A stretch of 64,000 nucleotides of DNA from positions 46,209 through 110,208 of the forward strand of contig JAFQQQ010000003.1 in the NCBI GenBank assembly GCA_017410525.1. Direction: 5' to 3'. The notes below the pieces were generated by a model, which searched no databases, was not told the DNA's origin, and was given only the letters and a program-made list of their open reading frames with translations. Source of the DNA: Bacilli bacterium (GTDB lineage: Bacteria > Bacillota_I > Bacilli_A > RF39 > UBA660). Both the position numbers and the translations under genes were made by a program. Each line of letters opens with the position of its first letter. The first letter of the stretch is position 1. Positions 9,554-31,668 of the stretch are shown piece after piece.

Positions 9554-9691
9554 AATTATCACCATAATAATTATAACTTAAATGTTAAAAAAAATAAAGT
9601 TCTATTTACAAATCTCGACAGTTTTTTTAAAAATGTCTGTAAAACCTTTATAATTACATATAATTGTGTTATAATTAAAAAGGTGATACAA

Positions 9692-10723
9692 ATGAATGAT
9701 ATTAATTTAACAACTATACTTTTAATGGTTTTTATACCTTTTGTATTTGTTGCACTTATAATACCTGTAATTAAGAAGGTAGCTAATCATGTAGGCGCGA
9801 TGGATATGCCAGATAAAAGAAAAGTACATTCAACTCCAATGCCTAGGTTAGGTGGGTTAGGTATATATGGCGGTTTTTTACTTGGATATATGATTTTTGG
9901 TGAACAAACACCAACTATGAATGCTATACTTATTGGAAGTTTTGTATTATTAATAACTGGTATAATAGATGATATAAAACCTATGAAAGCATCTCACAAA
10001 TTAATTTGTCAATTTGTTGCAGCTTTAATAGTGGTTATATATGGTAATTTACTTTTAAGAGACGTTAGTTTCTTTGGTATGTATATTAATTTTGGTTTTT
10101 GGGCTTATCCAATAACAATTTTATTTATATTAGGATGTATAAATTGTGTGAATCTGATAGATGGATTAGATGGACTTGCAGGTGGGATTAGTTCCATATT
10201 CTTTCTTACAATAGGAATAATTGCATATTGTCAGGGTAGAATTGGTTTATCGGTAGTAATAACTTTTATTATGTTTGGATCAACACTAGGATTCTTAGTT
10301 CATAATTTTCATCCAGCAAAAATATTTATGGGTGATTCTGGATCAATGTTTTTAGGATTTATAATATCGGTAATAACTCTTTTAGGATTTAAAACTATAA
10401 TAAGTACATCTATTATAATTCCACTTTGCATATTAATAGTTCCAATTTTAGATACTTTATGTGCGATTATAAGAAGAAAACTAAAAGGCGAGAGTATTGG
10501 TACACCTGATAAAAGTCATTTTCACCACCAATTACTTAGAAGAAATTATGGAGTTAGAGGCACTGTAATAGTAATTTATATTATAACAATTTTATTTAGT
10601 GCAGCTTCTATAATTTGGCTGTTAGTTGATAAAAATATTGGCTATATAATATATGGAATATTACTACTATGCCTTATAATATTTGTTTTTAGAACGGATA
10701 TAATATTTGATCATAAAAAATAA
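9692..10723 (+). CDS. UDP-GlcNAc:undecaprenyl-phosphate GlcNAc-1-phosphate transferase (TagO/WecA, MraY-like GT4)
   Basis: Polytopic membrane protein with motifs MPDKRKVHSTPMPRLGGLGIY and NLIDGLDGLA. Extended -10 TGTTATAAT sits upstream. ATG at 9692 after AGGTGA. Confidence 0.8.
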   Translation: MNDINLTTILLMVFIPFVFVALIIPVIKKVANHVGAMDMPDKRKVHSTPMPRLGGLGIYGGFLLGYMIFGEQTPTMNAILIGSFVLLITGIIDDIKPMKASHKLICQFVAALIVVIYGNLLLRDVSFFGMYINFGFWAYPITILFILGCINCVNLIDGLDGLAGGISSIFFLTIGIIAYCQGRIGLSVVITFIMFGSTLGFLVHNFHPAKIFMGDSGSMFLGFIISVITLLGFKTIISTSIIIPLCILIVPILDTLCAIIRRKLKGESIGTPDKSHFHHQLLRRNYGVRGTVIVIYIITILFSAASIIWLLVDKNIGYIIYGILLLCLIIFVFRTDIIFDHKK

Positions 10724-10756
10724 GTAAAAAAAGAAAAAGAGGTTTGAAAAATAAAC

Positions 10757-12328
10757 ATGAAAAATGAAAAAGAAAGAAAAAAAAATTATAGAATGATTAT
10801 AAATTTGCTTAGTTGTTTAGTTTCTTTTGTTATTACAATGGGAATAAGTTTTCTTTTAACTCCGTATATAACACAAAAGTTAGGCGCAGAAGCATACGGG
10901 TTTGTCTCGCTAGCGAATAATTTTGTTAATTATGCTTCAATAGCGACTTTAGCTATCAATTCTATGGCAGCTAGGTTTGTTTCTGTAAGTTATCATCAAA
11001 AGGATTATAATGAAGCTAATAAATATTTTAATAGTATTCTTTTCACAAACTTTTTTTTAATCTTGATTTTATTTGTTCCATCTCTTTTGATTATTTGTTT
11101 TCTACAAAGGATTGTTACTATAACTTCAACTTTAATTTTGTTTGTGAAAATTTTATTTGCTCTGATATTTTTAAATTTTTTTATGGGCTTGATAAATAGT
11201 TCTTTTTCAGTTTCATTATTCATAAAAAATAGAGTTGATTTAACAAATTTAAAAAATATGGAATCGAATGTTTTGAAAGCTTTAATTATGTTGGTATTGT
11301 TTTACTTGTTTGGAGCTAATATAATTTTTGTTGGCATTGCATCCTTAATAGCGACTACATATCTTTTAATTTATAATTTAAAATATTTCATTAAATTAAC
11401 GCCGGAAATAAAAATAAATAAAATTTACTTTGATATAAAAATGACATTTAAAATATTTATGTCAGGCATATGGAACACTGTTACAAAATTAGGTCAAGTT
11501 TTATCTGATGGCTTAGATTTATTGGTTTGTAACTGGTTTGTTACGCCATTAGCGATGGGGCAACTTGCAATTTCAAAAACTTTCTCAACATGTATAAGTA
11601 CATTAACTGCCAATATAAGTTATGTTTTTCAACCAAATATGACATACTACTATGCTATAGGGGATAAAGATAAAGAAATAAACGAAATAAAATTTTCCAT
11701 GAAAGCGACAGCGTTTTTTTCTAATATACTACTTGCAGGTGTTATTGCTCTAGGGATTAATTTGTTTAATTTGTGGATACCTGGACAAAATATAAGAATT
11801 ATATATTTATCAACATTTGTTACTATAATAGGTGGTATAGTAGGTTCAACTATTAATAGTTTGTTTAATATTTTTACTATAACTAATAAATTAAAAACAA
11901 ATTCATTAGTTACATTGAGTCAAGGTATTTTAAATATTATTTTAGTTTTCATTTTGTTAAGTTTAAATATATTTAAAGGGTATGAAATAGTCGTAATATC
12001 TGGCGTAAGTGTATTTACTTCTATAATAAAAAATTTGACATTTACTCCTATATATGCAGCAAAATGTTTAAACACAAACATAACAGTTTTTTATAAAACA
12101 ATTTTTACTGGTATGATATCGGCCATAATATTAATAATAACTTTTGCTTTTATATCAAATATTATTAATCCAATCACTTGGCCTTCTTTAATAATTTGCG
12201 CTTTAATTTGTGGTTTATTTGGAATAATTATTAATTACATTATATTACTAAACCATAATGAAAGAGAAATTTTTAAAAATTCTATAAAATCAATGTTGTT
12301 AAGAGGTGATAAAAATGAAGCAAAATAA
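10757..12328 (+). CDS. Wzx-type oligosaccharide flippase (MOP/polysaccharide biosynthesis family)
   Basis: 523 aa with about 12-14 TM helices. Polysaccharide-locus context. Confidence 0.7.
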   Translation: MKNEKERKKNYRMIINLLSCLVSFVITMGISFLLTPYITQKLGAEAYGFVSLANNFVNYASIATLAINSMAARFVSVSYHQKDYNEANKYFNSILFTNFFLILILFVPSLLIICFLQRIVTITSTLILFVKILFALIFLNFFMGLINSSFSVSLFIKNRVDLTNLKNMESNVLKALIMLVLFYLFGANIIFVGIASLIATTYLLIYNLKYFIKLTPEIKINKIYFDIKMTFKIFMSGIWNTVTKLGQVLSDGLDLLVCNWFVTPLAMGQLAISKTFSTCISTLTANISYVFQPNMTYYYAIGDKDKEINEIKFSMKATAFFSNILLAGVIALGINLFNLWIPGQNIRIIYLSTFVTIIGGIVGSTINSLFNIFTITNKLKTNSLVTLSQGILNIILVFILLSLNIFKGYEIVVISGVSVFTSIIKNLTFTPIYAAKCLNTNITVFYKTIFTGMISAIILIITFAFISNIINPITWPSLIICALICGLFGIIINYIILLNHNEREIFKNSIKSMLLRGDKNEAK

Positions 12329-13202
12329 TTTTTCTTTTTTCAGAATTAAAAGAAAAATTTTAACTAATAATATAAAAAATTTAATTATTAAACAGGATTT
12401 ACAAAGGTATTTAACTTATAATTTTTTGTATAAAAGATATAAAAGTATTATAGATTCTAGCAAATATGAAAGTAAAAAATATAAATCTAAAAAAGTTGTT
12501 TGGTTTTGTTGGTTTCAAGGAATCGATAATGCGCCTAGTTTAGTGAAGCTTTGTTTTAATAAAATAAAAAAGATTTTTAAAGATTATGAAATTGTTTTAA
12601 TTACTGCAAAAAATTATAGTGATTATATAAACATCCCTAATTATATTATTTCTAAATGGGAAAAAGGTATAATTTCTAATACTCATTTTTCAGATATTAT
12701 TAGAATTGAACTTTTAGCAGAGCATGGAGGAATATGGATAGATTCAACTGTTTATTGTACTTGCGACAATGTACCTAGTTATATAGAGAGTAACTCAATG
12801 TTTTTGTTTAAACAAATTAATTTAAATAGGGCTTCTAAAGATATTATTGTATCTTCTAGTTGGTTTATTAAGGCAAATAAGAACAATCCAATAATATTGT
12901 TAACTAGAGATTTATTACATGAATATTGGAGAGAAGCTGGCAGATTGGTTGATTATTTTATATTACATTTATTCTTTTCAATGGCTTCAAAAAAATATGA
13001 AAAAGAATGGGAAGCTATACCTAACTTTAATAACGTTAATCCTCATATATTACAATTTGAATTAGGAAACAAATATAATGAAGAAAGATTTAAATATTAC
13101 AAAAAAATTTCTGATTTTCATAAACTTTCATATAAATTTGACTTTTCTTTGTTCCAAAAATCATCAAATTATGATTATATAGAAAGGGACATATATGAAT
13201 AA
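12315..13202 (+). CDS. capsular-polysaccharide-synthesis-family (Caps_synth / GT32-like) glycosyltransferase
   Basis: Motif IIRIELLAEHGGIWIDSTVYCT is typical of the Caps_synth / OCH1-like DxD transferases. ATG at 12315 after AGAGGTGA. Confidence 0.55.
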   Translation: MKQNNFSFFRIKRKILTNNIKNLIIKQDLQRYLTYNFLYKRYKSIIDSSKYESKKYKSKKVVWFCWFQGIDNAPSLVKLCFNKIKKIFKDYEIVLITAKNYSDYINIPNYIISKWEKGIISNTHFSDIIRIELLAEHGGIWIDSTVYCTCDNVPSYIESNSMFLFKQINLNRASKDIIVSSSWFIKANKNNPIILLTRDLLHEYWREAGRLVDYFILHLFFSMASKKYEKEWEAIPNFNNVNPHILQFELGNKYNEERFKYYKKISDFHKLSYKFDFSLFQKSSNYDYIERDIYE

Positions 13203-14322
13203 TGTTAAGTTTATAATAAAATATATTGTATATAGTTTTTTTGTAATTTTTCCTATAAAAAAGAACAAGATTGTTTGTAATAATTTTATGGGTAAAGGAT
13301 TTGGCGATAACCCTAAATATATAGTAAATGAATTAATAAATCAAAAAACAAATTGCGATATTGTATGGGTTTGCAAACCAGAATACGCGAGATCTTTACC
13401 ATCTTCTGTTAGGATTGCTACAAAGTGGTATGAAATTTTATATGAATTTGCAACTGCAAAAATTTGGATAAGTAATGTTAGGTTGCCTAGATATTTAAGA
13501 AAGAGAAAGGGACAATTTTATATTCAAACTTGGCATGGGGGACTGGGTTTTAAAAAAGTAGAAAAAGATGTTGTTGATTCTCTTAGTAGAGGGTATGTTA
13601 AGGATGCTATACATGATGCCAGACAAACTGATCTTATGATTGCTAATTGCAAATTTTTAGAAAATCTATACAAAGATTCTTTTTGGTATGATGGGTATGT
13701 ATTATGTGAGGGATTACCTAAAAACGATTGTTTAACAAAAAGTACACCTGAAAAAGATAATGAAATACTTTCAAAATATAACTTACATGGCTTTGATATA
13801 ATACTTTATGCTCCTACGTTTAGAAAAAAAATGGATAAGGAAGTTTATAATATAAATTTTAATTCTTTAATTAAATTATTAAATAAAAAAACTAATAAGA
13901 AATGGAAAGTAATTGTTAGACTACACCCTAATGTTAATTTTCCTGAAAATTATATTGATTTTAATAATGATATAATAAATGTAAGTGACTATGATGACAT
14001 AAATGATTTATATAGTATTTCTGATATGTTAATTTCAGATTATTCATCAATAATGTTTGATTTTATGCTTACCAATAAACCAGTATTTATTTATGCAACT
14101 GACATAGAAGAATATAAAAAAGATAGAGATTTTTATTTATCTATTGAAGAATTGCCCTTTTCTATATCAACTAATAATAAAGAATTGTTAAAAAATGTAG
14201 AGAAAAATGATTTAAAAAAATTAATGTATAAATATAATAAATTTAATAAAAAATATGGGATAATAAATACAGGTGACTCTAGTAAAAAAATAGTAAAAAT
14301 AATAGAAGAAAAGTTAGGATAA
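13195..14322 (+). CDS. CDP-glycerol glycerophosphotransferase (TagB/TagF family)
   Basis: Motifs QTWHGGLGFKKV and ISDYSSIMFDF are characteristic of Glyphos_transf enzymes. Confidence 0.75.
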   Translation: MNNVKFIIKYIVYSFFVIFPIKKNKIVCNNFMGKGFGDNPKYIVNELINQKTNCDIVWVCKPEYARSLPSSVRIATKWYEILYEFATAKIWISNVRLPRYLRKRKGQFYIQTWHGGLGFKKVEKDVVDSLSRGYVKDAIHDARQTDLMIANCKFLENLYKDSFWYDGYVLCEGLPKNDCLTKSTPEKDNEILSKYNLHGFDIILYAPTFRKKMDKEVYNINFNSLIKLLNKKTNKKWKVIVRLHPNVNFPENYIDFNNDIINVSDYDDINDLYSISDMLISDYSSIMFDFMLTNKPVFIYATDIEEYKKDRDFYLSIEELPFSISTNNKELLKNVEKNDLKKLMYKYNKFNKKYGIINTGDSSKKIVKIIEEKLG

Positions 14323-14346
14323 TACATTGGGAAGGAAGATTTTAAT

Positions 14347-15273
14347 ATGAAATTTAGCATAATTATTCCAATATATAATGTAGAAAAATATTTAGAAAAA
14401 TGTTTAAATAGTGTTTTGTCGCAATCATATGAAAATTTTGAAGTAATAATGGTTAACGATGGAACTAAAGATAATTGTAAAAAAATAATGGATACCTTTT
14501 CTAAAAGAGATAAACGTTTTAAAGCATATAATAAAGAAAATGGTGGATTGAGTGATGCTAGAAATTTTGGTTTAAATTATGCAACGGGTGATTATTTGAT
14601 ATTCATTGATAGTGATGACTATATTGAAAATGATTATTTATTTAAGGTAAATGAAATTTTGAAGAAAAACAAAGAAGTAGATGTATTAAGGATTAAGTGC
14701 AAAAAAGTTGACGAACAAGGTAATTTAATTTGTTTCGAAAAATCAATCAATAAAAATGGTATAGTTACAATATGTGATTTGTTTTGTTTAGATTTTTTTG
14801 AAACTGCTTGGAGTTATGTTTATAATTTATCTTTTTGGAAAAAAAACAATTTTAAATATATGAAAGACAAAATACATGAAGATTTCGGCCTTACTCCTGA
14901 AATATTAATGAGGGCAAAAAAAATTTATTATACGGATTATTTTGTTTATAATTATGTACAAAGGGAAGGTAGTATAATGTCAGAGAAATCTGAGAAAAAA
15001 ACATTAAAAAAATGTTTTGATATATTAGAACAATATGACAGACTTATTAATGTTGATTATGGTGAAAATAAATATATCCCAGAGTATAAAAGTTATATTT
15101 CAAATATAGTGATAGAAAAAGCAAAAGAATTAAAAGGTCAAAATTTTAAAAAGTATATAAGAGAATTAAAAAGAAGAAAAGTATTTAATAATTTATTAAA
15201 TAATAGTTTAAAGAGAAAAATAAAAATAATTCTTCTAAAAATAAGTGTTAAATTATATTTTAAAATTTCATAG
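14347..15273 (+). CDS. family-2 glycosyltransferase
   Basis: Motifs FSIIIPIYNVEKYL and DSDDY. Confidence 0.8.
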   Translation: MKFSIIIPIYNVEKYLEKCLNSVLSQSYENFEVIMVNDGTKDNCKKIMDTFSKRDKRFKAYNKENGGLSDARNFGLNYATGDYLIFIDSDDYIENDYLFKVNEILKKNKEVDVLRIKCKKVDEQGNLICFEKSINKNGIVTICDLFCLDFFETAWSYVYNLSFWKKNNFKYMKDKIHEDFGLTPEILMRAKKIYYTDYFVYNYVQREGSIMSEKSEKKTLKKCFDILEQYDRLINVDYGENKYIPEYKSYISNIVIEKAKELKGQNFKKYIRELKRRKVFNNLLNNSLKRKIKIILLKISVKLYFKIS

Positions 15274-15284
15274 GAGTGATTTAT

Positions 15285-16244
15285 ATGCAACCTAAGGTAA
15301 GTATTATTGTGCCTGTATATAATGTAGAAAAATATATTTTAAGATGTATGGATAGTTTAGTAAATCAAACATTAGAAGATATAGAGATTATAATAATAAA
15401 TGATGGTACTAAGGATAATTCCGTAAAATTAATTGAAAAAAATTATAACGATAGTAGAATAAAAATTATAAATAAAAAAAATGCAGGACAAGCGGCTGCT
15501 AGAAACGATGGTTTAAAAGAATCAAATGGCGAATATATTTTTTATGTAGATAGTGATGATTATATTGAATTAGAAACTTTAGAAAATATGTATAATTTAG
15601 CAATAAAAAATAATTCTGATTTAGTTATATGTGATTACTTCAAATTATATGATAATAATAAAAAAGTATATCAATCAACAATACCTTTTTATAGCAGCAA
15701 TAATGAAAAAATTCCAGTTTTATCTATGCCTGGGCCTGTATGCAAATTATTTAAAAAGGAAATTTTAATAAGCAATGAAATAAATTTTTTAGAAAGTCAT
15801 ATATTTGAAGATAATGCAATTATTCCATACGCTTGTTCTTTGTGTAAAAATATAATATATACACAAGTGGCTTATTATTATTATTATCAAAGATCTGGAT
15901 CAAGCTTAAATCAAAAAACTTATAATAAGAATCTTGAAGATATCTTTGATGCTCTTGATTATTTGTATAATAAATTTAAAGCTAATAATACTTTGAATAA
16001 ATATTTTGATGAATTAGAATACATCTATATTGAACATTTGCTTCATGCCGCTAATTTAAGATTTATTCAATACAAAGAAGCGTATAAAAATATTAATATA
16101 ATATCTAATACACTCAAAGAAAAATTTCCTAATTGGAGAAAAAATAAGTATTATAAAATGCAAAATATAAAATATAAAATAGTTTGCAGTTTATTTTATA
16201 AAAAAAATATATTATTATTAAAATTACTTCTTAGAAAAAGGTGA
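15285..16244 (+). CDS. family-2 glycosyltransferase
   Basis: Motifs VSIIVPVYNVEKYI and DSDDY. RBS AGGAGTGA before the ATG at 15285. Confidence 0.8.
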   Translation: MQPKVSIIVPVYNVEKYILRCMDSLVNQTLEDIEIIIINDGTKDNSVKLIEKNYNDSRIKIINKKNAGQAAARNDGLKESNGEYIFYVDSDDYIELETLENMYNLAIKNNSDLVICDYFKLYDNNKKVYQSTIPFYSSNNEKIPVLSMPGPVCKLFKKEILISNEINFLESHIFEDNAIIPYACSLCKNIIYTQVAYYYYYQRSGSSLNQKTYNKNLEDIFDALDYLYNKFKANNTLNKYFDELEYIYIEHLLHAANLRFIQYKEAYKNINIISNTLKEKFPNWRKNKYYKMQNIKYKIVCSLFYKKNILLLKLLLRKR

Positions 16245-16248
16245 TAAT

Positions 16249-17421
16249 ATGAAAAATATATTATTTGTAGTAGATGATAAAAAAATGGGTGGGGTTTCTA
16301 TATTATTAGAAGATATTTTAAATAGATTAAATTTAAATAAATTTAATATTGATCTTTTAATACTAAAAAATGAAGGCGAATTGTTAAGTAAAATTCCATC
16401 AAAGATAAATATACTTTATGGTGATGAATTTTTTTACCCAATAAATTATTCATTATCTTCTGCAATCAAAGAAAAAAAACTAAAAAAAATAATTGATAAA
16501 GCTTTATTAGTTTTATATATGAAAACACCAATAATAAAATATATAATAAAAAGTAAAAGAAAAAAAATATTAAAAAAACAATATGATACTGAATTGGCTT
16601 TTAAAGATGGTTTTTGTGGACTATTTGTTGGATATGGTGATTCAAAAAGAAAAGTTCAATGGTTACATGCTGATTATTCTAGCCAGGATGATATTCAAAA
16701 TTATAAAACTAAATTTAAAAAATTATATAAAAATTTTGATAGAATTGTGGGAATTTCAAAACCAGTAGCTAAATATTTTAATGATAAGTATGGTTGTGAA
16801 GATAAAACAATTTGTATATATAATTTTGTAAATACACAAAAAGTTATTGAAAAATCTAATGAATATGAAATTAAGAAAGATTCTAAAAAAATTAATTTTG
16901 TCTCTGTAGGAAGATTTCATAAAATGAAAGGGTATTTAAGACTTATACGCGTTATTAATAAATTAAATCAAAATAATGAATTTAATAATTGCCATTTAAC
17001 TATAGTTGGTGATGGTCCGGAATATAATGAAGCTATTAATTTAATAAAAGATTACGATATAGGTGATAAAATTACTTTAATTGGATCTAAACAAAATCCA
17101 TTTCCATATGTAAAAAATTCAGATTGTTTTATTATGGGATCAGTTTATGAACCGTTTGGTTTAACTGTAATTGAAGCATTAACCCTTAAAGTTCCAGTTT
17201 TATCTACTGAGGTTGCTACTATAAGGGAAATGTTATCTAAAGAATATGGATTAATTGTAGAAAACAGTGAAAAAGGTTTATATAATGGATTTAAAAAAAT
17301 AATTAATAATAAAAATTTATTAAAAAATTACAAAAAAAATGTAAAAAATTATCAATATGATACTAAAAAAATAATTAAACAAATAGAAAATTTGTTGGAA
17401 GGGAAGCTACAAAATGAATAA
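16249..17421 (+). CDS. family-4 glycosyltransferase
   Basis: C-terminal EX7E motif (YEPFGLTVIEAL). 390 aa. Confidence 0.75.
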   Translation: MKNILFVVDDKKMGGVSILLEDILNRLNLNKFNIDLLILKNEGELLSKIPSKINILYGDEFFYPINYSLSSAIKEKKLKKIIDKALLVLYMKTPIIKYIIKSKRKKILKKQYDTELAFKDGFCGLFVGYGDSKRKVQWLHADYSSQDDIQNYKTKFKKLYKNFDRIVGISKPVAKYFNDKYGCEDKTICIYNFVNTQKVIEKSNEYEIKKDSKKINFVSVGRFHKMKGYLRLIRVINKLNQNNEFNNCHLTIVGDGPEYNEAINLIKDYDIGDKITLIGSKQNPFPYVKNSDCFIMGSVYEPFGLTVIEALTLKVPVLSTEVATIREMLSKEYGLIVENSEKGLYNGFKKIINNKNLLKNYKKNVKNYQYDTKKIIKQIENLLEGKLQNE

Positions 17422-19933
17422 TTTTTTAAAAGAAGAAACAGTAAAAAAAATGTTATTTTTATTTATAATTATTCAACCATTAATGGATATATATTATTTA
17501 TATACTATTCCTAATTTAGGTGGGGTTTTTGTTTTTTCTCCTTCTACTATAATTAGATTTGTGTTTTTTGGAATTTTATGTTTATTTGCATTTCTAATTT
17601 TAAAAAAGAAAAATAAATTTAAACTTTTATGGTGGTTTATCTGTATAGTATTAATATATACATTATTTCATCATTTAAATTGTTTAAATTATAATAATGA
17701 AATATTAGGAAATCAAACTTATTCCTTAATAACTGAACTTTTTTATATTGCAAGAATGTTAATGCCTATATTATTAATCTATATAAGTTATAATTTTAAA
17801 TTAAGTGAGAAAAAATTAAGTAAAGCATTATTTATTACTGCAGCTATATTTTCTTTTACAATGGTTATAACTAATTTGTTTTTAATTGCAATACCTTCAT
17901 ATGACGGTGCGACAAATATTAAAGTAAATTTTTTACAATGGTTTTCTCTAAAAAATCAAAATATAGAATTTATCTATATTGCGTCAAAAGGTATATTTCA
18001 CATGGCAAATCAAATAAGTGGAACTTTTGTTTTAATATTACCATTGTTAATTTATTATTTTAATAAAAAACATACTTTTTTAAGATTTATAATTATTTGT
18101 TCATTAATTTTGTCAATGCTTATGTTAGGTACTCGCGTTGCTTCGTATGGAGCGATTATTATCTGCATTGCAATGTTTGTTATGTATTTATTTTTCTATA
18201 TTTTAAAAAAAGAATATAATATAAATAAAAAAGTTATAGTTTCTAATTTTTTCCTTATAATCTTTTCAATAGTTTTCTTTTGTTTTAGCCCTGTTGTTTA
18301 TAGAAATTTTACTTCGACTATACCAAGTGATGATTCATATTCAAAAGAACAAACTATTATTAAAAAATATAATACTTTATTAAAGGAAAATAATAAAAAA
18401 GAATTAATCAAATTTATAAAGGAAAACTCATTAATATTTTCTATAAGAGAAAAATATACAAATGAAGTATATCCAGCAGAAAATAATTTAAATTTTTGGA
18501 TAAATACTTTTAATTTACCAATAGAAAAAAGAAATGATGATAGAAAAATTCAACAACTTATATTGGAGGATGTATTTAATAGAAACAATTCTATTTTTGA
18601 TGTTTTTTGTGGGATTGGCTCAAGTAGAGTTAGAAATAGTAGTATATATATTGAAAAAGATTTTATAGTACATTACTATATGCTTGGAGTTTTTGGATTA
18701 TTTGTTTTTATATCTCCTTATGTAATTATCTTATGTTATAGTGTTTTTAAGGTTTTGAGAAGGAATAAACAAACTTTTAATTATAAAAATTGTACTTTTA
18801 TATTTGCTACATTTTTAACTTTGATATGTAGTATTTATAGTGGTAATGTTTTAGATGAATTAATAATTACTGTTTATTTAGGAATTGTATTAGGAACTTT
18901 ATTATCGAATATTAATAATAATAGTTCTAAACAAAAATTAGAGGATAATAAGCTTAAATTAAGTGTTATTGTTCCTGTATATAATGTAGAAAACTATTTG
19001 GAAACATGTTTGGATAGTTTGATAAATCAAACAATTACTAATTATGAAATAATAGTAGTAAATGATGGAAGTCTTGATAGTAGTCAATCTATAATTGATA
19101 AATATCAAAAATTATATCCAGATAAAATAAAAAGTTATATAAAAGAAAACGGTGGGTTAAGTGATGCTAGAAATTATGGATTAAAATATGCAAAAGGGGA
19201 GTATATTGCTTTTCTAGACAGTGATGATTATGTAGAATATAATATGTATGAATTAATGTATAATAAAGCAGTATCACAAAATTTTGATGTTGTAGCATGC
19301 AATGTAAAATATGTATATGAAAATGAAAACAAAACTTTCTTATGTAATTCTAAAATATATTCTGATCTATTTGAAGAAAAAGAAATAAAAAAACTAATGT
19401 TAGATATATATCCTGCTGTATGGAACAAAATTTATAAGAGAGAAAAATTTCAAAAATTTAAATTCAAGAAAAATGCTTGGTTCGAAGATGTTGAATACTT
19501 ATATAGAATTTTTCCTTATATTTCATCTATGGGGACTATTGATAAAGCATTAATAAATTATAAACAAAGAGAAGGTGCAATAACAAAAACTTTTGACGAA
19601 AGATTATTACACCAAATATCTAATTGGAATGGAATTGTTGAGTATTATAAAAAAAATAATTTATTAGAAAAATATGAAAAAGAAATAGAATATTGCTATG
19701 TTAGATATTTATATGCAACTCTAGTAAGTCATTCTTTGAATTATAATAATTATGATTTTTTCAAAAAGGTATTGGATGAATGTGATAAAAATGTAAAAGA
19801 AAACTTCCCTAATTATAGAAAAAATAAGTATTTATATACAAATGGCTTAAAAGGTTTATATTTATTATTTTATAATAAAAAAATTATTAAAAAATTATAT
19901 AAATATAAACATAAAAATGGAGGTAATAAATAA
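17414..19933 (+). CDS. fusion protein: N-terminal polytopic Wzy/O-antigen-ligase-like polymerase domain + C-terminal family-2 glycosyltransferase
   Basis: First ~500 aa carry about 10-12 TM helices in an O-antigen-ligase-like arrangement. Last ~330 aa have GT2 motifs LSVIVPVYNVENYL and DSDDY. Confidence 0.6.
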   Translation: MNNFLKEETVKKMLFLFIIIQPLMDIYYLYTIPNLGGVFVFSPSTIIRFVFFGILCLFAFLILKKKNKFKLLWWFICIVLIYTLFHHLNCLNYNNEILGNQTYSLITELFYIARMLMPILLIYISYNFKLSEKKLSKALFITAAIFSFTMVITNLFLIAIPSYDGATNIKVNFLQWFSLKNQNIEFIYIASKGIFHMANQISGTFVLILPLLIYYFNKKHTFLRFIIICSLILSMLMLGTRVASYGAIIICIAMFVMYLFFYILKKEYNINKKVIVSNFFLIIFSIVFFCFSPVVYRNFTSTIPSDDSYSKEQTIIKKYNTLLKENNKKELIKFIKENSLIFSIREKYTNEVYPAENNLNFWINTFNLPIEKRNDDRKIQQLILEDVFNRNNSIFDVFCGIGSSRVRNSSIYIEKDFIVHYYMLGVFGLFVFISPYVIILCYSVFKVLRRNKQTFNYKNCTFIFATFLTLICSIYSGNVLDELIITVYLGIVLGTLLSNINNNSSKQKLEDNKLKLSVIVPVYNVENYLETCLDSLINQTITNYEIIVVNDGSLDSSQSIIDKYQKLYPDKIKSYIKENGGLSDARNYGLKYAKGEYIAFLDSDDYVEYNMYELMYNKAVSQNFDVVACNVKYVYENENKTFLCNSKIYSDLFEEKEIKKLMLDIYPAVWNKIYKREKFQKFKFKKNAWFEDVEYLYRIFPYISSMGTIDKALINYKQREGAITKTFDERLLHQISNWNGIVEYYKKNNLLEKYEKEIEYCYVRYLYATLVSHSLNYNNYDFFKKVLDECDKNVKENFPNYRKNKYLYTNGLKGLYLLFYNKKIIKKLYKYKHKNGGNK

Positions 19934-21804
19934 TGAATAAATATTTTGATTTATTATATAAAGATAGTTTTATTAAATTTATAAAATTTGTAAAAAATAA
20001 TTTATTAAAAGAGAAAAAAACTTTTATTGTAACAGCTAATCCAGAAACTTTTATGTTTTCTGAAAAAGACAAAGATTTAGAAAATATTATCCTTGATAAA
20101 AATGTAACGATTGTACCAGATGGTATTGGAATTGTTAAAGCTGCTAAAATGATAAATAATCCAGTTAAAGAAAGAATAACTGGAATTGATATAGCCAATG
20201 AATTATTAGATATAGCTAATGAAAATAAATTAAGTTTATATTTATTTGGTTCTGCTAAAGAAGTAATTAAAGCAATGGAAGAAGTAATAAATAAAAAATA
20301 TCCAAATATAAAATTATTAGGCACAAGTGATGGTTATGTCAAAGATAAAGATAAAGTTTTTGAAAAAATAGCTAAATTATCTCCAGATATAGTAATGGTA
20401 GCTCTTGGAATACCAAATCAAGAAAAACTAATTTACAAGCATTACAATAAATTTAAAAAAGGTGTATTTATAGGAGTAGGTGGATCTTTTGACGTTATAA
20501 GTGGTTATAAAAAAAGAGCTCCTAAATTATTTATAAAATTAAATTTAGAATGGTTATATAGAATTTTAAAAGAACCAAAAAGAATAAAGAGATTTTATAA
20601 TAGCAATGTTAAATTTTTAATGAATATTCAAAAAAAAAAATTAAATAATAAAATTAATATATTGTTTTTAATAATTTGTTGTTTAATTTTGTTATTTGGA
20701 TTATTTAATTCTATTTTTAATCCAAAAGACATTAATCAATATGAAAATCGTACTGCATATAAAATACCAAAATTTGAACTGAAAGGTTTTATTAATAAAA
20801 CCTTGCAAGATCAAATTGAACTTTCATTTTCAGATCAAATACCAATGGCCATTCTAATGAAAAAAACATATAATTATATTCAAGCATTCACATCACAACA
20901 AATTACAAATATATTATTAAAAAACAAATGTAATAATTTATATATAAATATAAATGATAGTATTAGTACTTTTGGTTGTGATAAACACTTGGTATATAAG
21001 CAATCAACTCTAAAATCTGATAAAGAGAGTTATAAAAAAAGAATTGAAAATATAAATAAATTTATTAAAAACATGAATGGAAAGGTTTATTTATATTATA
21101 TTGAAAAAGATACAGATATAAATTTTGTTAACAATAAAAAATCTAATATATATGAATATTTAGAAAAAAATATAAATTCAAAAAATATGTATAGATTTGA
21201 AATAAACAATTTTGAAGAGTATAAACAATATTTTTATAAGACAGATCATCATTGGAATTATAAAGGTTCCTATTTAGCATATAAAGATTTAGTTAATATT
21301 TTAACTAATGAGAAACCTTTAAATTTTGAAAATGAAAAATGTATAAATGATTATTTTAGTGGTTCTAAAGCTAGTATAGGTGGTGTTTCATCTATATATA
21401 AAGAACATTTTTGTGCTTATGAATTTGAATTTCCAAAACTTGATATTTATATAAATGGTAAAAAAGAAAACTATGGAAAAGAAGAATATTATTTTAAAAA
21501 AAATAATGAATATGTTTCTTATGCTTTATTTTATGGTGATGATTATGCTGAAATAATATTTGATTCAAATAATTCTAAAAAAGAAAATATTTTAATTATT
21601 GGAGAATCATATGATAATGCTATTTTAAAATTATTATCAACTCACTTTAATAAAACATATTCAATAGATTTGCGTCATTATGAAAAATATGCAGGAGAAA
21701 AATTTAATTATTTTGATTATATTTTAGAAAAAGATATAGATAAAGTTCTTTTAATAGGTAATAAGGATTATTTTTTATTGGAAGACTTCTATTTGGAGGT
21801 ATAA
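19933..21804 (+). CDS. fusion protein: WecB/TagA/CpsF-family (GT26) ManNAc transferase + C-terminal DHHW-family domain
   Basis: N-terminal ~240 aa carry TagA motifs (GVGGSFDVISGYKKRAPK, LEWLYRILKEPKRIKRFY). A TM helix follows. The C-terminal domain contains a literal DHHW motif (KTDHHWNYKGSY). Confidence 0.7.
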   Translation: MNKYFDLLYKDSFIKFIKFVKNNLLKEKKTFIVTANPETFMFSEKDKDLENIILDKNVTIVPDGIGIVKAAKMINNPVKERITGIDIANELLDIANENKLSLYLFGSAKEVIKAMEEVINKKYPNIKLLGTSDGYVKDKDKVFEKIAKLSPDIVMVALGIPNQEKLIYKHYNKFKKGVFIGVGGSFDVISGYKKRAPKLFIKLNLEWLYRILKEPKRIKRFYNSNVKFLMNIQKKKLNNKINILFLIICCLILLFGLFNSIFNPKDINQYENRTAYKIPKFELKGFINKTLQDQIELSFSDQIPMAILMKKTYNYIQAFTSQQITNILLKNKCNNLYININDSISTFGCDKHLVYKQSTLKSDKESYKKRIENINKFIKNMNGKVYLYYIEKDTDINFVNNKKSNIYEYLEKNINSKNMYRFEINNFEEYKQYFYKTDHHWNYKGSYLAYKDLVNILTNEKPLNFENEKCINDYFSGSKASIGGVSSIYKEHFCAYEFEFPKLDIYINGKKENYGKEEYYFKKNNEYVSYALFYGDDYAEIIFDSNNSKKENILIIGESYDNAILKLLSTHFNKTYSIDLRHYEKYAGEKFNYFDYILEKDIDKVLLIGNKDYFLLEDFYLEV

Positions 21805-21807
21805 GAT

Positions 21808-23220
21808 ATGTTATTTAGTAGTTTAACATTTTTATTTGGATTTTTACCTGTTTTATTTTTAATCTACTTTATTTGTCGAAATAATTTTGCTAAAAATATT
21901 ATTTTGCTTCTATTTTCATTAATATTTTATGCTTGGGGAGAACCTAAATACATATTTTTAATGTTGTTTACAGTGTTAATTGTATATATATTTGGCATAT
22001 TAATTGATAGATGTGATAAAACAAAAAAATATATAAGAAAAAAAGTATTTTTTATAATATGTATAGTATTATTAATTTTTAGTTTAGTATTTTTTAAGTA
22101 TAGTAATTTTATCTTTCAGAACATAAATAATATTTTTGGAGCTAATATAAAAACTTTAAAAATAGTATTGCCAATAGGAATTAGTTTTTATACTTTTCAA
22201 ATTCTTTCTTATATTATTGATTTATATAATAAAAAAATAAAGGTACAAAATAATTTTTTTAATTTAGCTTTATATGTTTCATTTTTTCCTCAATTAATTG
22301 CTGGACCGATAGTTAGATATGAAACAATAGAGGAAGAAATTTCTAATAGAAAAGAAAGTTTAGAAAATATAGTTTCTGGAGCTAAAAGATTTATTATAGG
22401 ATTATCAAAAAAAATAATAATTGCTAATCAAATGGCTATATTTGCTGATTTAATTTATAATAATTATTCTGTTTCTTATGGAACATCTATAATTTGGCTT
22501 GCGACAATTGCTTATACATTTCAGATATATTTTGATTTTTCTGGATATAGTGATATGGCTATAGGTTTAGGTAAAATATTTGGATTTAATTTTTTAGAAA
22601 ATTTTGATTATCCATATATATCGACTTCTATTACTGAATTTTGGCGCAGATGGCATATATCTTTATCCAGTTGGTTTAGAGATTATGTATATATACCTTT
22701 AGGAGGAAACAGGGTAAATAAAACTAAATGGATTAGAAATATTATAATTGTTTGGTTGTTAACTGGTTTATGGCATGGTGCTGCTTGGAATTTTATCATT
22801 TGGGGATTATTTTATGGATTTTTACTTTTATTTGAAAAATTATTTTTCAAAAAAGTATTAGATAAATTACCAAAATTTATTTGTTGGTTATATACTATTT
22901 TTATTATATTAATAGGATGGCTAATTTTCAGAGTCAATTCATTAGAACAATTAATAATATATTTAAAAGAAATGTTTATATTTAATAAAACTGATTGGAT
23001 TTTTATTTTATCTAATGAGCTTACAACTTTTAATTCGTTGATTTTTATTATACCAGCAATAATTTTTTCTACACCTATCATAAAAAAAATTAATATAAAA
23101 TTTGGTGGGAAAGTTTGGTATACTACAATTTATAATATAATGTTATTAGTGCTGCTATTAGTATGTATTACTTGTTTGACAAGTTCTTCATATAATCCGT
23201 TCATTTATTTTAGATTTTAA
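21808..23220 (+). CDS. MBOAT-family membrane O-acyltransferase (AlgI/DltB-like) 1
   Basis: Signature FWRRWHISLSSWFRDYVYIPLGG with the catalytic His. Polytopic membrane protein. Confidence 0.85.
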   Translation: MLFSSLTFLFGFLPVLFLIYFICRNNFAKNIILLLFSLIFYAWGEPKYIFLMLFTVLIVYIFGILIDRCDKTKKYIRKKVFFIICIVLLIFSLVFFKYSNFIFQNINNIFGANIKTLKIVLPIGISFYTFQILSYIIDLYNKKIKVQNNFFNLALYVSFFPQLIAGPIVRYETIEEEISNRKESLENIVSGAKRFIIGLSKKIIIANQMAIFADLIYNNYSVSYGTSIIWLATIAYTFQIYFDFSGYSDMAIGLGKIFGFNFLENFDYPYISTSITEFWRRWHISLSSWFRDYVYIPLGGNRVNKTKWIRNIIIVWLLTGLWHGAAWNFIIWGLFYGFLLLFEKLFFKKVLDKLPKFICWLYTIFIILIGWLIFRVNSLEQLIIYLKEMFIFNKTDWIFILSNELTTFNSLIFIIPAIIFSTPIIKKINIKFGGKVWYTTIYNIMLLVLLLVCITCLTSSSYNPFIYFRF

Positions 23221-23247
23221 TAGTTAAAAAAGAGAGGAAGTTTAAAA

Positions 23248-24696
23248 ATGTTGTTTAATTCATTTAAGTTTTTAATTTTTTTTCCAATTGTTACTTGTAT
23301 ATATTTTTTAATAAAAAAAGATAATATTAAATTAATTTGGTTATTGATTTGCAGTTACTTTTTTTACATGTGTTGGAATCCAATTTTTGCTTTATTAATG
23401 TTGTTTTCTACCTTTGTTACTTATATTTTTAGTTTATTAATGGAAAAATACAAAAAGCATAAAAAATTATTTTTAATTTTAAGTTTAATTATAAACTTGT
23501 TAATATTATTTTGTTTTAAATATCTTACTTTTATAATTGAAAATATAAATAATATATTTAAATTCTTCAATATTAGTGGTATAAAAACATTTGATATATT
23601 ATTACCAGTAGGTATTTCATTTTATACATTTCAGGCATTAAGTTATTCTTTTGATGTTTATAGGAATGATGTAAAAGTAGAAAAAAATTTTATAAAATAT
23701 GCACTTTTTGTTTCTTTTTTTCCACAATTAGTAGCTGGTCCCATTGAAAAGTCAAAAATATTTTTGAGTCAGTTTAATTTAAAACACAAATTTGATTATA
23801 ATAAAGTTAAAAACGGTATTTTAATAATGTTAGGTGGTTTTATTTTAAAACTTGTTATTGCTGATCGAGCTGCAATAGCAGTAAATCAAGTATATAATAA
23901 TTTATCATTATATACAGGATTATCATTAATATTAGCAACTGTACTTTTTGCTTTTCAAATATATTGTGATTTTTATGCTTATTCATTAATAGCAAAAGGG
24001 TCTGCACAGGTATTAGGATATAATTTATCACAAAATTTTAATAAACCTTATTTATCAACTAGTATAAAAGATTTTTGGAGAAGGTGGCATATTTCACTTA
24101 GTACTTGGTTTAAGGAATATTTATATGTTCCACTTGGTGGTAGTAAAGTAAGTAAGTTAAAAACAATAAGAAATATTTTAATTGTTTTTTGTGTTAGTGG
24201 TTTATGGCATGGTGCAGCTTGGACATTTCTAATATGGGGGTTATTACACGGATTATATCAAGTTATAGGAATGCTTATTAAAAATATTAGAAATAAAATT
24301 TCAAATATTCTTTTATTAGAAAAACATCCATTAATACACAAAATATTTCAAATAATAATTTGTTTTATACTTGTGGATTTTGCTTGGATTTTCTTTAGAG
24401 CTAATACTTTATATGATGCTTTTTATGTAATAAAAAATATTTTTGATTTTTCAGAAGGATTAAAACTAGCTAATTTTGGTTTATCAAGAGCAAATCTTGT
24501 GTTATTATTCTTCTCTATAGTATGTTTAATGATTTATGAGATATTTAATCATAAGTTTGATATTATAAAATTTATTAATAAAAGAAACATTATTGTTAGA
24601 TGGATTTTATATTTTATAATAATATATATAATACTTATTTTTGGAATTTATGGTCCAGGTTATGATGCTTCTCAATTTATATATTTTCAATTTTAG
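23248..24696 (+). CDS. MBOAT-family membrane O-acyltransferase (AlgI/DltB-like) 2
   Basis: Paralogue of the upstream gene. Signature FWRRWHISLSTWFKEYLYVPLGG. Confidence 0.85.
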   Translation: MLFNSFKFLIFFPIVTCIYFLIKKDNIKLIWLLICSYFFYMCWNPIFALLMLFSTFVTYIFSLLMEKYKKHKKLFLILSLIINLLILFCFKYLTFIIENINNIFKFFNISGIKTFDILLPVGISFYTFQALSYSFDVYRNDVKVEKNFIKYALFVSFFPQLVAGPIEKSKIFLSQFNLKHKFDYNKVKNGILIMLGGFILKLVIADRAAIAVNQVYNNLSLYTGLSLILATVLFAFQIYCDFYAYSLIAKGSAQVLGYNLSQNFNKPYLSTSIKDFWRRWHISLSTWFKEYLYVPLGGSKVSKLKTIRNILIVFCVSGLWHGAAWTFLIWGLLHGLYQVIGMLIKNIRNKISNILLLEKHPLIHKIFQIIICFILVDFAWIFFRANTLYDAFYVIKNIFDFSEGLKLANFGLSRANLVLLFFSIVCLMIYEIFNHKFDIIKFINKRNIIVRWILYFIIIYIILIFGIYGPGYDASQFIYFQF

Positions 24697-24705
24697 GAGG
24701 TATAC

Positions 24706-25647
24706 ATGAAAAAAATTATAATTAAAGTTATTATATTTACAGTTTTATTTTCTATTTCACTTTTTGTAGTTTCAAAAATTTTTGTTAGAAAAGGTGATGG
24801 TTATGGAACTGATGTACTTTCATTCTATAATGAGAAAGAAAATTCTATGGATTTAATATTTTTTGGATCATCACATAGTTATTCAACGTTTTCTCCTAAA
24901 GTTTTAGAAGAAAAAACAGGGTTAAAGTCTTATAATTTTGCAACTCAACAACAACCTCTTTGGATTACATATCATTACATGATTGAAAGTTTAAAGTATC
25001 AAAAACCAAAATATTTTGTTTTGGAAATATTAATGACTAGTGTAAATCAAAGTTATATGGAAGAAGGAGTAAATCGCGATGCAATAGACAAAATGAGATT
25101 TTCATTTAACAAAATACAAGCAATAAATTCTAGTGTTGAAAATTTTTCTGATAGAATAAGTTATTACTTAAATATAATAAAATATCATAGCAGATGGAAT
25201 GAGTTGAGTAAAAAAGATATAGTAGATAATTTAAAAAATAATATCAGTGACTCTAAAGGGTTTACTTATTTAAAAGGAAATGTTGAGCCTGCATATAAAA
25301 ATGATGTTACTAATTTTAAAGAAACTAAAAAGATAACTAAAAAGAATAATTTATATTTAAAAAAGATTATTGAATTAGCTAAAGACAATAATATAGAATT
25401 GATTTTAGTTAAAAGTCCTTGTACAATAACTAAGGAAAATCAAGCTTATTATAATTATGTTGAAGAAATAGCAAAAGAAAATAATATTAAATATTTGAAT
25501 TATAATTTGTTATATGATATACTTGAATTAGATTTTGAAAATGATTTTTATGATAGTGGTCATTTGAAAGGTGAAGCAGCTATAAAAGTAACTAATCATT
25601 TTGCGAAGTATTTGATTGAAAAGTATGATATACAAGGAGGTAAATAA
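24706..25647 (+). CDS. membrane-anchored SGNH/DltD/AlgX-like esterase-acyltransferase partner protein
   Basis: N-terminal TM anchor. GDS-like block FFGSSHSYSTF near the N-terminus. C-terminal DSGHL (DxxH). Confidence 0.55.
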   Translation: MKKIIIKVIIFTVLFSISLFVVSKIFVRKGDGYGTDVLSFYNEKENSMDLIFFGSSHSYSTFSPKVLEEKTGLKSYNFATQQQPLWITYHYMIESLKYQKPKYFVLEILMTSVNQSYMEEGVNRDAIDKMRFSFNKIQAINSSVENFSDRISYYLNIIKYHSRWNELSKKDIVDNLKNNISDSKGFTYLKGNVEPAYKNDVTNFKETKKITKKNNLYLKKIIELAKDNNIELILVKSPCTITKENQAYYNYVEEIAKENNIKYLNYNLLYDILELDFENDFYDSGHLKGEAAIKVTNHFAKYLIEKYDIQGGK

Positions 25648-26756
25648 TGATAAAAGTTATGACTGTTTTTGGAACTAGACCAGAAGCTATAAAAATGGCC
25701 CCGTTAGTTAAGGAGTTAAATTCTAGAGAAGAAATAGAAAGTATAGTATGTGTTACTGCTCAGCATAGAGAGATGTTGGATCAAGTATTAGAAACATTTG
25801 ATATTAAACCTGATTATGATTTAAATATAATGAAACAAGGACAAACATTAGGTGATGTTACTACAAGAGCGCTTAAAGGTCTTGAAGCAGTAATTAAGGA
25901 AATTAATCCTGATATAGTTTTAGTACATGGTGATACTACTACTACTTTTGCAGGAGCTTTAGCCGCCTTCTACAATCAAGTTGATATTGGTCATGTAGAA
26001 GCTGGATTAAGAACTTATGATAAATATTCACCATATCCAGAAGAAATGAATAGACAAATGGTTACTTGTATGACCGATATGTATTTTGCTCCTACAAAAC
26101 TAAGTGCTTCAAATTTAATCAAAGAAGGCAGAGATAAAGAAAAAATATATATTACGGGAAATACCGCTATTGATGCTATGAAAGTCACTATAAATAAAGA
26201 ATATAAAAGCGAGATTTTTGATTGGGTAGGAAATGACAGAATGATTCTTTTAACGGCTCATAGAAGAGAAAATTTGGGTGAACCAATGAAAAATATATTT
26301 AGAGCAATTAAAAGAATAATAAATGAATTTCAAGATGTAAAAGTTGTTTATCCAATACATTTAAATCCCAAAATAAGAGAAATTGCAAACGAGATTTTTA
26401 ATGACTGTGAGAAAATTAAAATAATAGAACCTTTAGAGGTGTTTGATTTCCACAATTTTCAAAATAAATCTTACATAATATTAACAGATAGTGGTGGTAT
26501 TCAAGAAGAAGCTCCATCTTTAGGTAAACCTGTATTAGTATTAAGAGATACTACTGAAAGGCCAGAAGGAATAGAAGCTGGAACATTAAAACTTGTAGGT
26601 ACGGATGAAGAAGTAATATATAGAGAAACAAAACTATTATTAGGTAATAAAAAAATTTACGATAAAATGAGCAAAGCTAGTAATCCATATGGTGATGGAA
26701 AAGCTAGTCAAAGAATAGTAGATGCGATTATTCAAAAATATAGTAAAGCAAAATAA
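25647..26756 (+). CDS. mnaA: UDP-N-acetylglucosamine 2-epimerase (non-hydrolysing; MnaA/WecB)
   Basis: MIKVMTVFGTRPEAIKMAPL and a full-length 369-aa epimerase. Confidence 0.9.
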   Translation: MIKVMTVFGTRPEAIKMAPLVKELNSREEIESIVCVTAQHREMLDQVLETFDIKPDYDLNIMKQGQTLGDVTTRALKGLEAVIKEINPDIVLVHGDTTTTFAGALAAFYNQVDIGHVEAGLRTYDKYSPYPEEMNRQMVTCMTDMYFAPTKLSASNLIKEGRDKEKIYITGNTAIDAMKVTINKEYKSEIFDWVGNDRMILLTAHRRENLGEPMKNIFRAIKRIINEFQDVKVVYPIHLNPKIREIANEIFNDCEKIKIIEPLEVFDFHNFQNKSYIILTDSGGIQEEAPSLGKPVLVLRDTTERPEGIEAGTLKLVGTDEEVIYRETKLLLGNKKIYDKMSKASNPYGDGKASQRIVDAIIQKYSKAK

Positions 26757-26820: not shown

Positions 26821-26849
26821 TTGACAAATATTTTTAAATTTGGTATCAT
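26821..26849 (+). promoter_or_regulatory. sigma-A type promoter for the candidate ncRNA
   Basis: TTGACA (26821-26826), a 17-nt spacer, then TATCAT (26844-26849). Confidence 0.6.
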
Positions 26850-31666: not shown

Positions 31667-31668
31667 GT

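Follow-up and report, generated by a model that had tools for sequence, protein, structure and literature searches.

The closest described counterpart of the locus examined here is the pathway that makes the secondary cell-wall polysaccharide (SCWP) of Bacillus anthracis and Bacillus cereus. In that pathway TagO, TagA, and an epimerase provide a start made of N-acetylglucosamine (GlcNAc) and N-acetylmannosamine (ManNAc). The published model adds a flippase of the multidrug/oligosaccharidyl-lipid/polysaccharide (MOP) type and two PF13425 proteins (WpaA and WpaB), which are proposed to act as polymerase or ligase. The polymer is O-acetylated by membrane-bound O-acyltransferases (MBOATs) together with PatB1, a protein of the DHHW family, and there are two such pairs (PatA1/PatB1 and PatA2/PatB2). 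These features recur in a cluster of 13 genes (g1 to g13) at positions 9692-26756 of a 64,000-nucleotide stretch, hereafter the window, of contig JAFQQQ010000003.1 from an uncultured Bacilli bacterium. We propose, with moderate confidence, that the cluster makes a teichoic-acid-like secondary cell-wall heteropolysaccharide, associated with peptidoglycan, by a route of the Wzx/Wzy type.

Comparison with Described Pathways

Several differences set the cluster apart from the B. anthracis/cereus pathway. In the present locus TagA and PatB form one protein, as do the Wzy-like domain and a family 2 glycosyltransferase (GT2). Instead of another DHHW protein, the second acylation partner is a DUF1574-like protein of the classical SGNH type. 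The locus also encodes a TagF-family phosphotransferase and, with its six glycosyltransferase domains, probably builds a much larger unit. Neither the pyruvyltransferase CsaB nor S-layer homology (SLH) domains were found among the scanned open reading frames (ORFs) of the window. These scans covered window ORFs of at least 120 amino acids; together with the gene calls in the 10 kb beyond each end, which were also scanned, about 83 kb were searched for missing components.

The enterobacterial common antigen (ECA), assembled by WecA, WecB, WecG, WzxE, and WzyE/WzzE, offers a second close parallel. It shares with the locus a GlcNAc-1-phosphate transferase, a 2-epimerase, and a transferase of the WecG/TagA family. 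In ECA, the repeat is flipped by Wzx and polymerized by Wzy, and ManNAc(A)-GlcNAc is found in every repeat (PMC9804384). The present host, in contrast, is Gram-positive, no Wzz is present, and g9 resembles TarA (206 bits) more than WecG (137 bits). ManNAc rather than N-acetylmannosaminuronic acid (ManNAcA) is expected because there is no WecC. The additional glycosyltransferases, the phosphotransferase, and the O-acetylation pairs also distinguish the locus from ECA.

A first-pass annotation of the window had likened the polymer to PS-II of Clostridioides difficile. The two loci do have in common an initiating transferase, a flippase-type exporter, a predicted polymerase, several GT2 enzymes, a glycerophosphotransferase (CD2775 in C. 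difficile), and the absence of the ABC exporter TagGH. However, this amounts to the general logic of flippase and polymerase plus one glycerophosphotransferase, and both the B. anthracis/cereus SCWP, which is the closest described system, and ECA are nearer. The paper on PS-II mentions TagA, TagO, and ManNAc not once and describes no MBOAT or PatB modules; the PS-II locus has manC/pgm2 and two LCP (LytR-CpsA-Psr) family genes, which are absent here.

Two other groups of polymers share parts of the scheme. The teichoic acid of Streptococcus pneumoniae and the decorations of the enterococcal polysaccharide antigen (EPA) of Enterococcus faecalis consist of repeats that contain polyol phosphate and are built on undecaprenyl phosphate, flipped by Wzx, and polymerized by Wzy-like proteins. 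These systems use LicD-family phosphotransferases, CDP-ribitol or phosphocholine, and other initiating sugars. LicD-family enzymes are also used by sister loci of our cluster, but the cluster itself has a TagF-family phosphotransferase and carries TagO, TagA, and MnaA within the locus. The E. faecalis EPA model employs TagA and TagB as well. The wall teichoic acid (WTA) pathway of Bacillus subtilis and Staphylococcus aureus (TagO-TagA-TagB-TagD-TagF/TarL-TagGH) likewise shares enzymes of the TagO, TagA, MnaA, and TagF families. It differs in that the present locus has no TagD or TagGH within about 83 kb and no long polymerase-type TagF/TarL, and has instead Wzx, a Wzy-like protein, and five additional glycosyltransferase domains.

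The Gene Cluster and the Proposed Pathway

The 13 ORFs (Table 1) are intact, lie on the same strand, and are tightly packed without interruption; their junctions range from an overlap of 23 nucleotides to a gap of 33 nucleotides, from which we read them as a single operon. The first gene starts at an ATG at position 9692, is preceded by a Shine-Dalgarno sequence (AAGGTGA), and agrees with the gene call of the source contig, a metagenome scaffold of 229 kb on which the same gene calls are present. Domains were assigned by Pfam and NCBIfam profile scans. All the domains that the first-pass annotation had named in this region were recovered, and its description of one operon-like locus for a cell-wall glycopolymer stands. 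The same is true of the gene fusions that it had called unusual: g8 has two domains and g9 has three parts.

Table 1. Genes of the cluster, with positions in the window
Gene	Product	Coordinates	Strand	Profile support and remarks
g1	Initiating polyprenyl-phosphate HexNAc-1-phosphate transferase (WecA/TagO type), about 10 transmembrane (TM) segments	9692..10723	+	PF00953 138 bits
g2	Wzx-type (MOP/Polysacc_synt) flippase, 523 aa	10757..12328	+	PF01943 31.3 bits (cut-off 28.2), residues 16-291
g3	Caps_synth / DXD (GT32-like) glycosyltransferase	12315..13202	+	PF05704 275 bits, PF04488 27 bits
g4	TagF-family CDP-polyol phosphotransferase, stand-alone soluble catalytic domain	13195..14322	+	PF04464 260 bits
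g5	GT2 glycosyltransferase	14347..15273	+	PF00535 120 bits
g6	GT2 glycosyltransferase	15285..16244	+	PF00535 126 bits; start per source-contig gene call
g7	GT4 (Glycos_transf_1) glycosyltransferase	16249..17421	+	PF00534 112 bits
g8	Wzy/WaaL-clan membrane domain (1-501, PF13425 O-antigen_lig) + cytoplasmic GT2 (511-839), 839 aa	17414..19933	+	
g9	TagA ManNAc transferase (18-238) + TM helix (243-261) + PatB1-type DHHW domain (about 300-620), 623 aa	19933..21804	+	
g10	MBOAT 1 (PatA type), partner of the g9 DHHW domain	21808..23220	+	PF03062 94 bits; C-terminus FIYFRF
g11	MBOAT 2 (PatA type), partner of g12	23248..24696	+	PF03062 116 bits; C-terminus FIYFQF
g12	Membrane-anchored extracytoplasmic SGNH-fold protein, divergent DUF1574, 313 aa	24706..25647	+	Fold and homologues
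g13	MnaA/WecB non-hydrolyzing UDP-GlcNAc 2-epimerase (UDP-ManNAc supply)	25647..26756	+	TIGR00236 549 bits (cut-off 210)

Promoter and terminator scans in the AT-rich DNA of the cluster performed no better than on shuffled sequence, and the operon boundaries are therefore those suggested by gene spacing and by the OLE RNA that flanks the cluster (see below). The GC content is 22.6% in the cluster, about 20% in its middle, and 24.9% in the rest of the window. The window also contains sporulation genes (SpoIIP, SpoIVB, SpoIIM, and YlbD), which, together with a GC content of about 24-25%, point to a spore-forming, low-GC Firmicute as the host. The relatives of the locus come from metagenome-assembled genomes (MAGs) of gut bacteria labelled uncultured Bacilli, Clostridium sp. 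CAG:302 and CAG:914, “Tenericutes,” and Mycoplasma sp. CAG:611.

In the pathway that we propose, MnaA (g13) would supply UDP-ManNAc, g1 would place GlcNAc-1-phosphate on undecaprenyl phosphate, and the TagA domain of g9 would add a beta-linked ManNAc. Up to five more glycosyltransferases (g3, g5, g6, g7, and the GT2 domain of g8) may lengthen the lipid-linked unit. To this unit g4 may add glycerol phosphate (GroP) or another polyol phosphate, taken from a CDP-activated donor whose synthesis would be encoded at another site of the genome, and the Wzx protein g2 would flip the completed unit across the membrane. On the outside, the PF13425 domain of g8 would polymerize the units. The exported polymer would then be O-acetylated at two different positions by two acetyl-CoA-dependent pairs, one made up of g10 and the PatB1-like domain of g9, the other of g11 and g12. 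Its attachment to peptidoglycan would fall to an LCP ligase whose gene lies elsewhere, a step that we infer from the LCP gene near one sister locus (L085, see below) and from general knowledge. The sugars beyond GlcNAc and ManNAc, like the attachment itself, are putative. A single initiating transferase combined with a Wzy-type route would put ManNAc-GlcNAc in every repeat, which is also where ECA and the B. anthracis SCWP have it.

The first steps of this scheme have good counterparts in the gene products. g1 scores 152 bits against the NCBIfam model of WecA (below the equivalog cut-off of 326) versus 78 bits against MraY. It carries the motifs of the polyprenyl-phosphate N-acetylhexosamine-1-phosphate transferases: DD96, N154xxNxxDGxDG, MGDSGS216, and HFHH279, the last at the position of the HIHH of WecA. 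MraY itself can be ruled out from these two scores and from the HFHH, which does not have the HHH context of MraY. The group that g1 transfers is probably GlcNAc-1-phosphate, i.e., a sugar specificity of the TagO type, and g1 is the sole initiating transferase within about 83 kb. g2 has at least 10 hydrophobic segments, and the annotation of the source contig concurs with the flippase assignment.

The Phosphotransferase and the Variable Part of Related Loci

Does g4 serve as a TagB-like primase, as the first-pass annotation assumed when it had TagO, MnaA, TagA, and TagB build a GlcNAc-ManNAc-GroP linkage unit? The NCBIfam scores of g4 are all below their cut-offs: TarF 179 bits (cut-off 550), TarL 85 bits, and TarB 75 bits (cut-off 500). 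Its match in the Protein Data Bank (PDB) is TagF (3L7I, 1e-40). The histidines of its TWHG and RLH motifs align with TagF H444 and H584, which we take to be the catalytic histidines of that enzyme. Because both are retained, a phosphate-containing, anionic polymer, as the first-pass annotation had supposed, is plausible.

We examined the distribution of g4 in a scan of one genome per species, which gave 80 loci around TagA homologues; the counts below refer to the 53 loci of at least 15 kb. MnaA lies side by side with TagA in 46 of the 53 (72-81% identical to g13). The other components are found near TagA less often: TagO in 20, a g8-like Wzy domain in 17, an MBOAT in six, a g4-like phosphotransferase in five, and a g12-like gene in three. 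Judged from this co-occurrence (5/53 for g4-like genes versus 46/53 for MnaA) and from the LicD-type replacements in the nearest sister loci, g4 belongs to a variable, repeat-specific part of the locus; it behaves as a decoration or in-chain step and not as part of a conserved primer.

The two closest sister loci, L082 and L085, encode TagA::PatB proteins that are 61% and 57% identical to g9. Their common backbone is Wzx-GT2-GT2-Wzy::GT-TagA::PatB-MBOAT-(MBOAT-DUF1574)-MnaA-(TagO). In place of g3 and g4, L082 has a sulfotransferase-like protein, LicD, and a 587 amino acid long sulfatase/LtaS-like protein (positions 536-4206), and L085 has an aminotransferase, a fusion of CTP_transf_like (TagD family) with GFO_IDH_MocA, and LicD (positions 570-5376). 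At the level of gene content, this suggests that different phospho-substituents are placed on a common backbone in the sister loci. In L085 the LCP ligase gene lies two genes downstream of MnaA, past a sulfatase-family gene. The block g5-g6-g7-Wzy-GT2 is kept in two other loci (L009 and L064) at 35-51% identity.

Sulfatase-family genes thus sit inside the wall-polymer loci of both L082 and L085. In our window, a 494 amino acid long membrane protein of this family (LtaS/GacH-like) is encoded at 38473-39957 (+), 12 kb downstream of the cluster. It is possibly an extracellular phosphoglycerol or phosphoethanolamine transferase, or a lipoteichoic acid (LTA) synthase.

We consider it unlikely that TagO, TagA, and g4 acting as TagB make one GlcNAc-ManNAc-GroP linkage unit, to which a separate, Wzy-polymerized main chain is joined. 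All three enzyme families do occur within one operon, and such a primer stands beside Wzx/Wzy-like proteins in the published, though unproven, models for B. anthracis, where a murein linkage unit is joined to repeats, and for the EPA decorations of E. faecalis; PF13425 proteins are proposed to both polymerize and ligate. TagO could in principle start both the primer and the repeats. However, g4 scores far under cut-off for both enzymes and resembles TarF more than TarB, its relatives are too rarely found with TagA and are replaced by LicD-type genes in the nearest sister loci, and no second initiating transferase that could start the main chain lies within about 83 kb. The linkage unit of the first-pass annotation is therefore retained in part: enzymes of the TagO, TagA, and MnaA types are present, but the role of TagB is doubtful for g4. 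A single such unit at the reducing end is not what the gene content implies, since one initiating transferase with a Wzy route places ManNAc-GlcNAc in each repeat. Under our preferred reading, a repeat that begins with ManNAc-GlcNAc, g4 would add polyol phosphate either as a side group or as an internal part of the unit, its exact place being conjectural.

TagA::PatB and the O-Acylation Pairs

The fusion of TagA with PatB in g9 would tie the start of the repeat to its modification. The match of the N-terminal domain to TarA, a UDP-ManNAc:GlcNAc-PP-undecaprenol type transferase, covers the full model, and this domain also matches the PDB structure of TagA (7MPK, 6e-43). The C-terminal domain matches B. 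cereus PatB1 (5V8E, 3.5e-14). Between them lies the only TM segment of the protein, preceded by a lysine-rich stretch, and from this arrangement TagA is expected to be inside the cell and PatB outside. Ten fusion homologues all keep the TDHHW motif (437-441), S559, and D579xR581 unchanged. The Asp-x-Arg block comes 20-22 residues past the nucleophilic Ser, a spacing equal to that of S337/D357/R359 in PatB1. Clustering of the full-length TagA::PatB fusions gives about 31 groups at 90% identity, but only one other representative at 50%.

In B. cereus, the acceptor of PatB1 is a ManNAc-GlcNAc-GlcNAc trisaccharide, of which the enzyme acetylates GlcNAc. Since this acceptor contains ManNAc-GlcNAc, the fusion would couple the maker of ManNAc-GlcNAc to its probable modifier, and it speaks for ManNAc transfer and SCWP O-acetylation being closely linked in function.

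TagA domains are very often C-terminal in long proteins of related gut Firmicutes (P0074, P0094, P0099, P0108, P0101, P0091, and others). At the N-terminus these proteins have a membrane domain, either PMT_2 (GT-C-like) or O-antigen_lig, or else a nucleotidyltransferase. Fusion to membrane enzymes with an extracellular site of action seems to be habitual for TagA.

The partner of the g9 DHHW domain would be g10. g10-like MBOATs adjoin DHHW genes or domains in four related loci (L003, L028, L082, and L085; 60-71% identity). The second MBOAT, g11, is followed by g12, and g11-like MBOATs adjoin g12-like genes in five loci (L059, L071, L080, L028, and L082). The two pairs of MBOAT and partner occur independently of each other in the relatives.

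By itself g12 has no Pfam match, and PDB searches with the single sequence or with a profile gave nothing significant. However, 18 of its 28 homologues match DUF1574 (PF07611), an SGNH family that has no characterized member. An AlphaFold2 model of g12 (pLDDT 87.7) is most similar in Foldseek to DltD (6PFX), followed by GDSL esterases and PatB of Neisseria gonorrhoeae. G54-S55-S56-H57 and D283/H286 (DxxH) are invariant, and an N-terminal TM segment spans residues 4-22. The SGNH-fold model and the conserved triad rule out that g12 is a non-enzymatic membrane protein.

A C-terminal FxYxxF acyl shuttle marks those MBOATs that take an acyl group from acyl-CoA and pass it to an SGNH partner, according to a study from 2025; in the Dlt system, this motif is on a separate peptide, DltX (PMC12148441). 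Both g10 and g11 end in such a motif (Table 1). D-alanylation by a DltB/DltD-type pair is unlikely in view of these ends, of DltB scores of 171 (g10) and 146 (g11) versus a cut-off of 375, and of the lack of DltA and DltC nearby: no gene for DltA, DltC, DltX, or another carrier protein or ligase of this kind was found among the scanned window ORFs.

Judging from sequence and predicted fold, the cluster thus has two complete O-acylation pairs of the PatA/PatB type, g10 with the C-terminal domain of g9 and g11 with g12; the acyl group is most likely acetyl. The duplication of the acylation machinery was already noted in the first-pass annotation, which counted two MBOATs and one SGNH partner. 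The MBOATs and the SGNH protein are as described, but the partners number two, the other one being the DHHW domain within g9. The position of g12 next to a PatA-type MBOAT in a wall-polymer operon predicts a function for the uncharacterized DUF1574.

Missing Components and the Capsule Alternative

A tblastn search with TagD found nothing in the window even at E = 10, although in three related Clostridia loci (L035, L056, and L057) the same probe picks up TagD, with 62-64% identity. Domains of an ABC exporter (TagGH) or of a cytidylyltransferase were likewise not found in the window or in the 10 kb on each side. The absence of both TagGH and TagD, as reported in the first-pass annotation, is thus extended to about 83 kb.

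A conventional capsule or exopolysaccharide operon, whose product would be released or loosely attached and would have no teichoic-acid-like function in the wall, is improbable in our estimation. The combination of Wzx, a Wzy-like protein, Caps_synth, and several GT2 and GT4 enzymes is typical of Gram-positive cps/eps loci, and such an origin would agree with a GC content below that of the flanks and with the mosaic, variable middle of the locus. Yet the scans of about 83 kb found no CpsA or other LCP ligase, no CpsB, no CpsC/D, no Wzz, and no initiator of the WbaP/CpsE type, and initiation by TagO/TagA/MnaA together with PatB1-type O-acetylation are hallmarks of a wall-linked SCWP.

Polymerase or Ligase?

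The structure model of g8 (pLDDT 86.9) has two domains, and its membrane domain has the WaaL/Wzy fold. Enzymes of the TagO, TagA, and MnaA types are indeed combined with Wzx and a Wzy-like protein, as the first-pass annotation had it, the membrane domain of g8 belonging to the Wzy/WaaL clan. PF13425 is also the family of WpaA and WpaB of B. anthracis. We infer that this domain polymerizes rather than ligates. In L009 and L064, Wzy and GT2 are encoded by separate adjacent genes, which suggests that g8 arose by a recent joining of neighbors. Fusions of PF13425 with GT2, GT4, Alg14, or Caps_synth domains are common in the related group.

In a structure comparison, the GT2 domain of g8 comes closest to CgT/GalT1 and to three enzymes that glycosylate teichoic acids, TarP, RmlT, and TarS. 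The last three enzymes glycosylate polyol-phosphate chains. The resemblance of the g8 domain to them, and to the N-terminal GT2 domain of TagF, gives a weak hint of a glycosyl-polyol-phosphate motif in the polymer.

It is very improbable that g8 is instead a WaaL/PglL-like ligase that transfers a single oligosaccharide, with no polymerization, to a surface protein, lipoteichoic acid, or glycolipid: the WaaL match reflects a shared clan fold only, with no solved Wzy among the structure matches listed, the association with TagA/MnaA and PatB1-type acetylation is known from polymeric SCWPs, and the locus has no linked gene for a candidate acceptor such as an S-layer glycoprotein.

Several points do weigh against a Wzx/Wzy-type wall heteropolysaccharide. 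Membership of PF13425 and a WaaL-like fold are common to polymerases and ligases. The Wzx assignment of g2 is marginal, its Pfam score lying only just above the cut-off (Table 1). Synthases for CDP-glycerol or CDP-ribitol, an LCP ligase, and a chain-length regulator are all missing from the roughly 83 kb scanned. The model for B. anthracis calls for a separate linkage unit itself, and there is no biochemical proof of it. To our knowledge, no cell-envelope chemistry has been described for any member of this clade.

Neighboring Features

Just past the cluster, 89 nucleotides after the mnaA stop, begins a full-length OLE (ornate, large, extremophilic) RNA (Rfam RF01071; 26845-27449, +; 374 bits, model positions 1-616). 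A promoter-like sequence, TTGACA-17-TATCAT with a TG extension (26821-26849), lies ahead of it. The RNA is followed by two small membrane-protein ORFs, one of 134 amino acids with one TM segment (27515-27919) and one of 181 amino acids with a CNNM/DUF21-type TM domain (27928-28473), whose products could be OLE-associated proteins. OLE RNA is thus found in a gut Bacilli MAG of about 25% GC.

Directly upstream of the cluster, at 5550-8950 (+), are two genes. The product of one is a secreted protein of 695 amino acids that combines a cadherin-like domain with a type I dockerin at its C-terminus; that of the other has 434 amino acids, contains cohesin and cadherin-like domains, and ends in a TM anchor. 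Together they resemble a minimal cohesin-dockerin pair tethered to the membrane, in a gut Bacilli MAG that does not look cellulolytic. The sole ORF on the opposite strand that adjoins the cluster (8960-9565, -; 201 amino acids) is also called as a gene in the metagenome annotation; its product has a lysine/glutamate-rich N-terminal half and three C-terminal hydrophobic segments, and no family match in the profile scans. Farther downstream, a set of three genes at 29473-32349 (+) encodes a CotH kinase-like protein, a VTC-domain protein, and a DUF4956 protein. Just before this set, at 28470-29402, lies a gene for a pilin-like protein with an N-terminal methylation motif and Ig-like domains.

Implications

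All components of the cluster belong to known families and the logic of the pathway is known; the current view of how Gram-positive wall polymers are made is unchanged. What is unusual about the locus is its two fusions, its DUF1574-like second acylation partner, and the exchange of phosphodiester modules between sister loci. The comparison of related loci places the TagF-like phosphotransferase in the variable part, outside the conserved TagO/TagA/MnaA primer.

It is tempting to speculate that the TagO, TagA, and MnaA “linkage-unit” enzymes have come to start a Wzy-polymerized repeat that is the cell's only equivalent of teichoic acid; we regard this as possible, though on balance doubtful. 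If it is true, phosphodiester modules would be interchangeable (TagF-like here, LicD- and sulfatase-like in the sister loci), and the TagA-TM-PatB fusion would physically couple cytoplasmic synthesis to extracellular modification. DUF1574 would also gain its first functional context, as the partner of a PatA-type MBOAT. Apart from this speculation, the cluster provides a concrete set of genes, open to testing, for the main wall glycopolymer in an uncultured lineage of spore-forming gut Bacilli with very low GC content.

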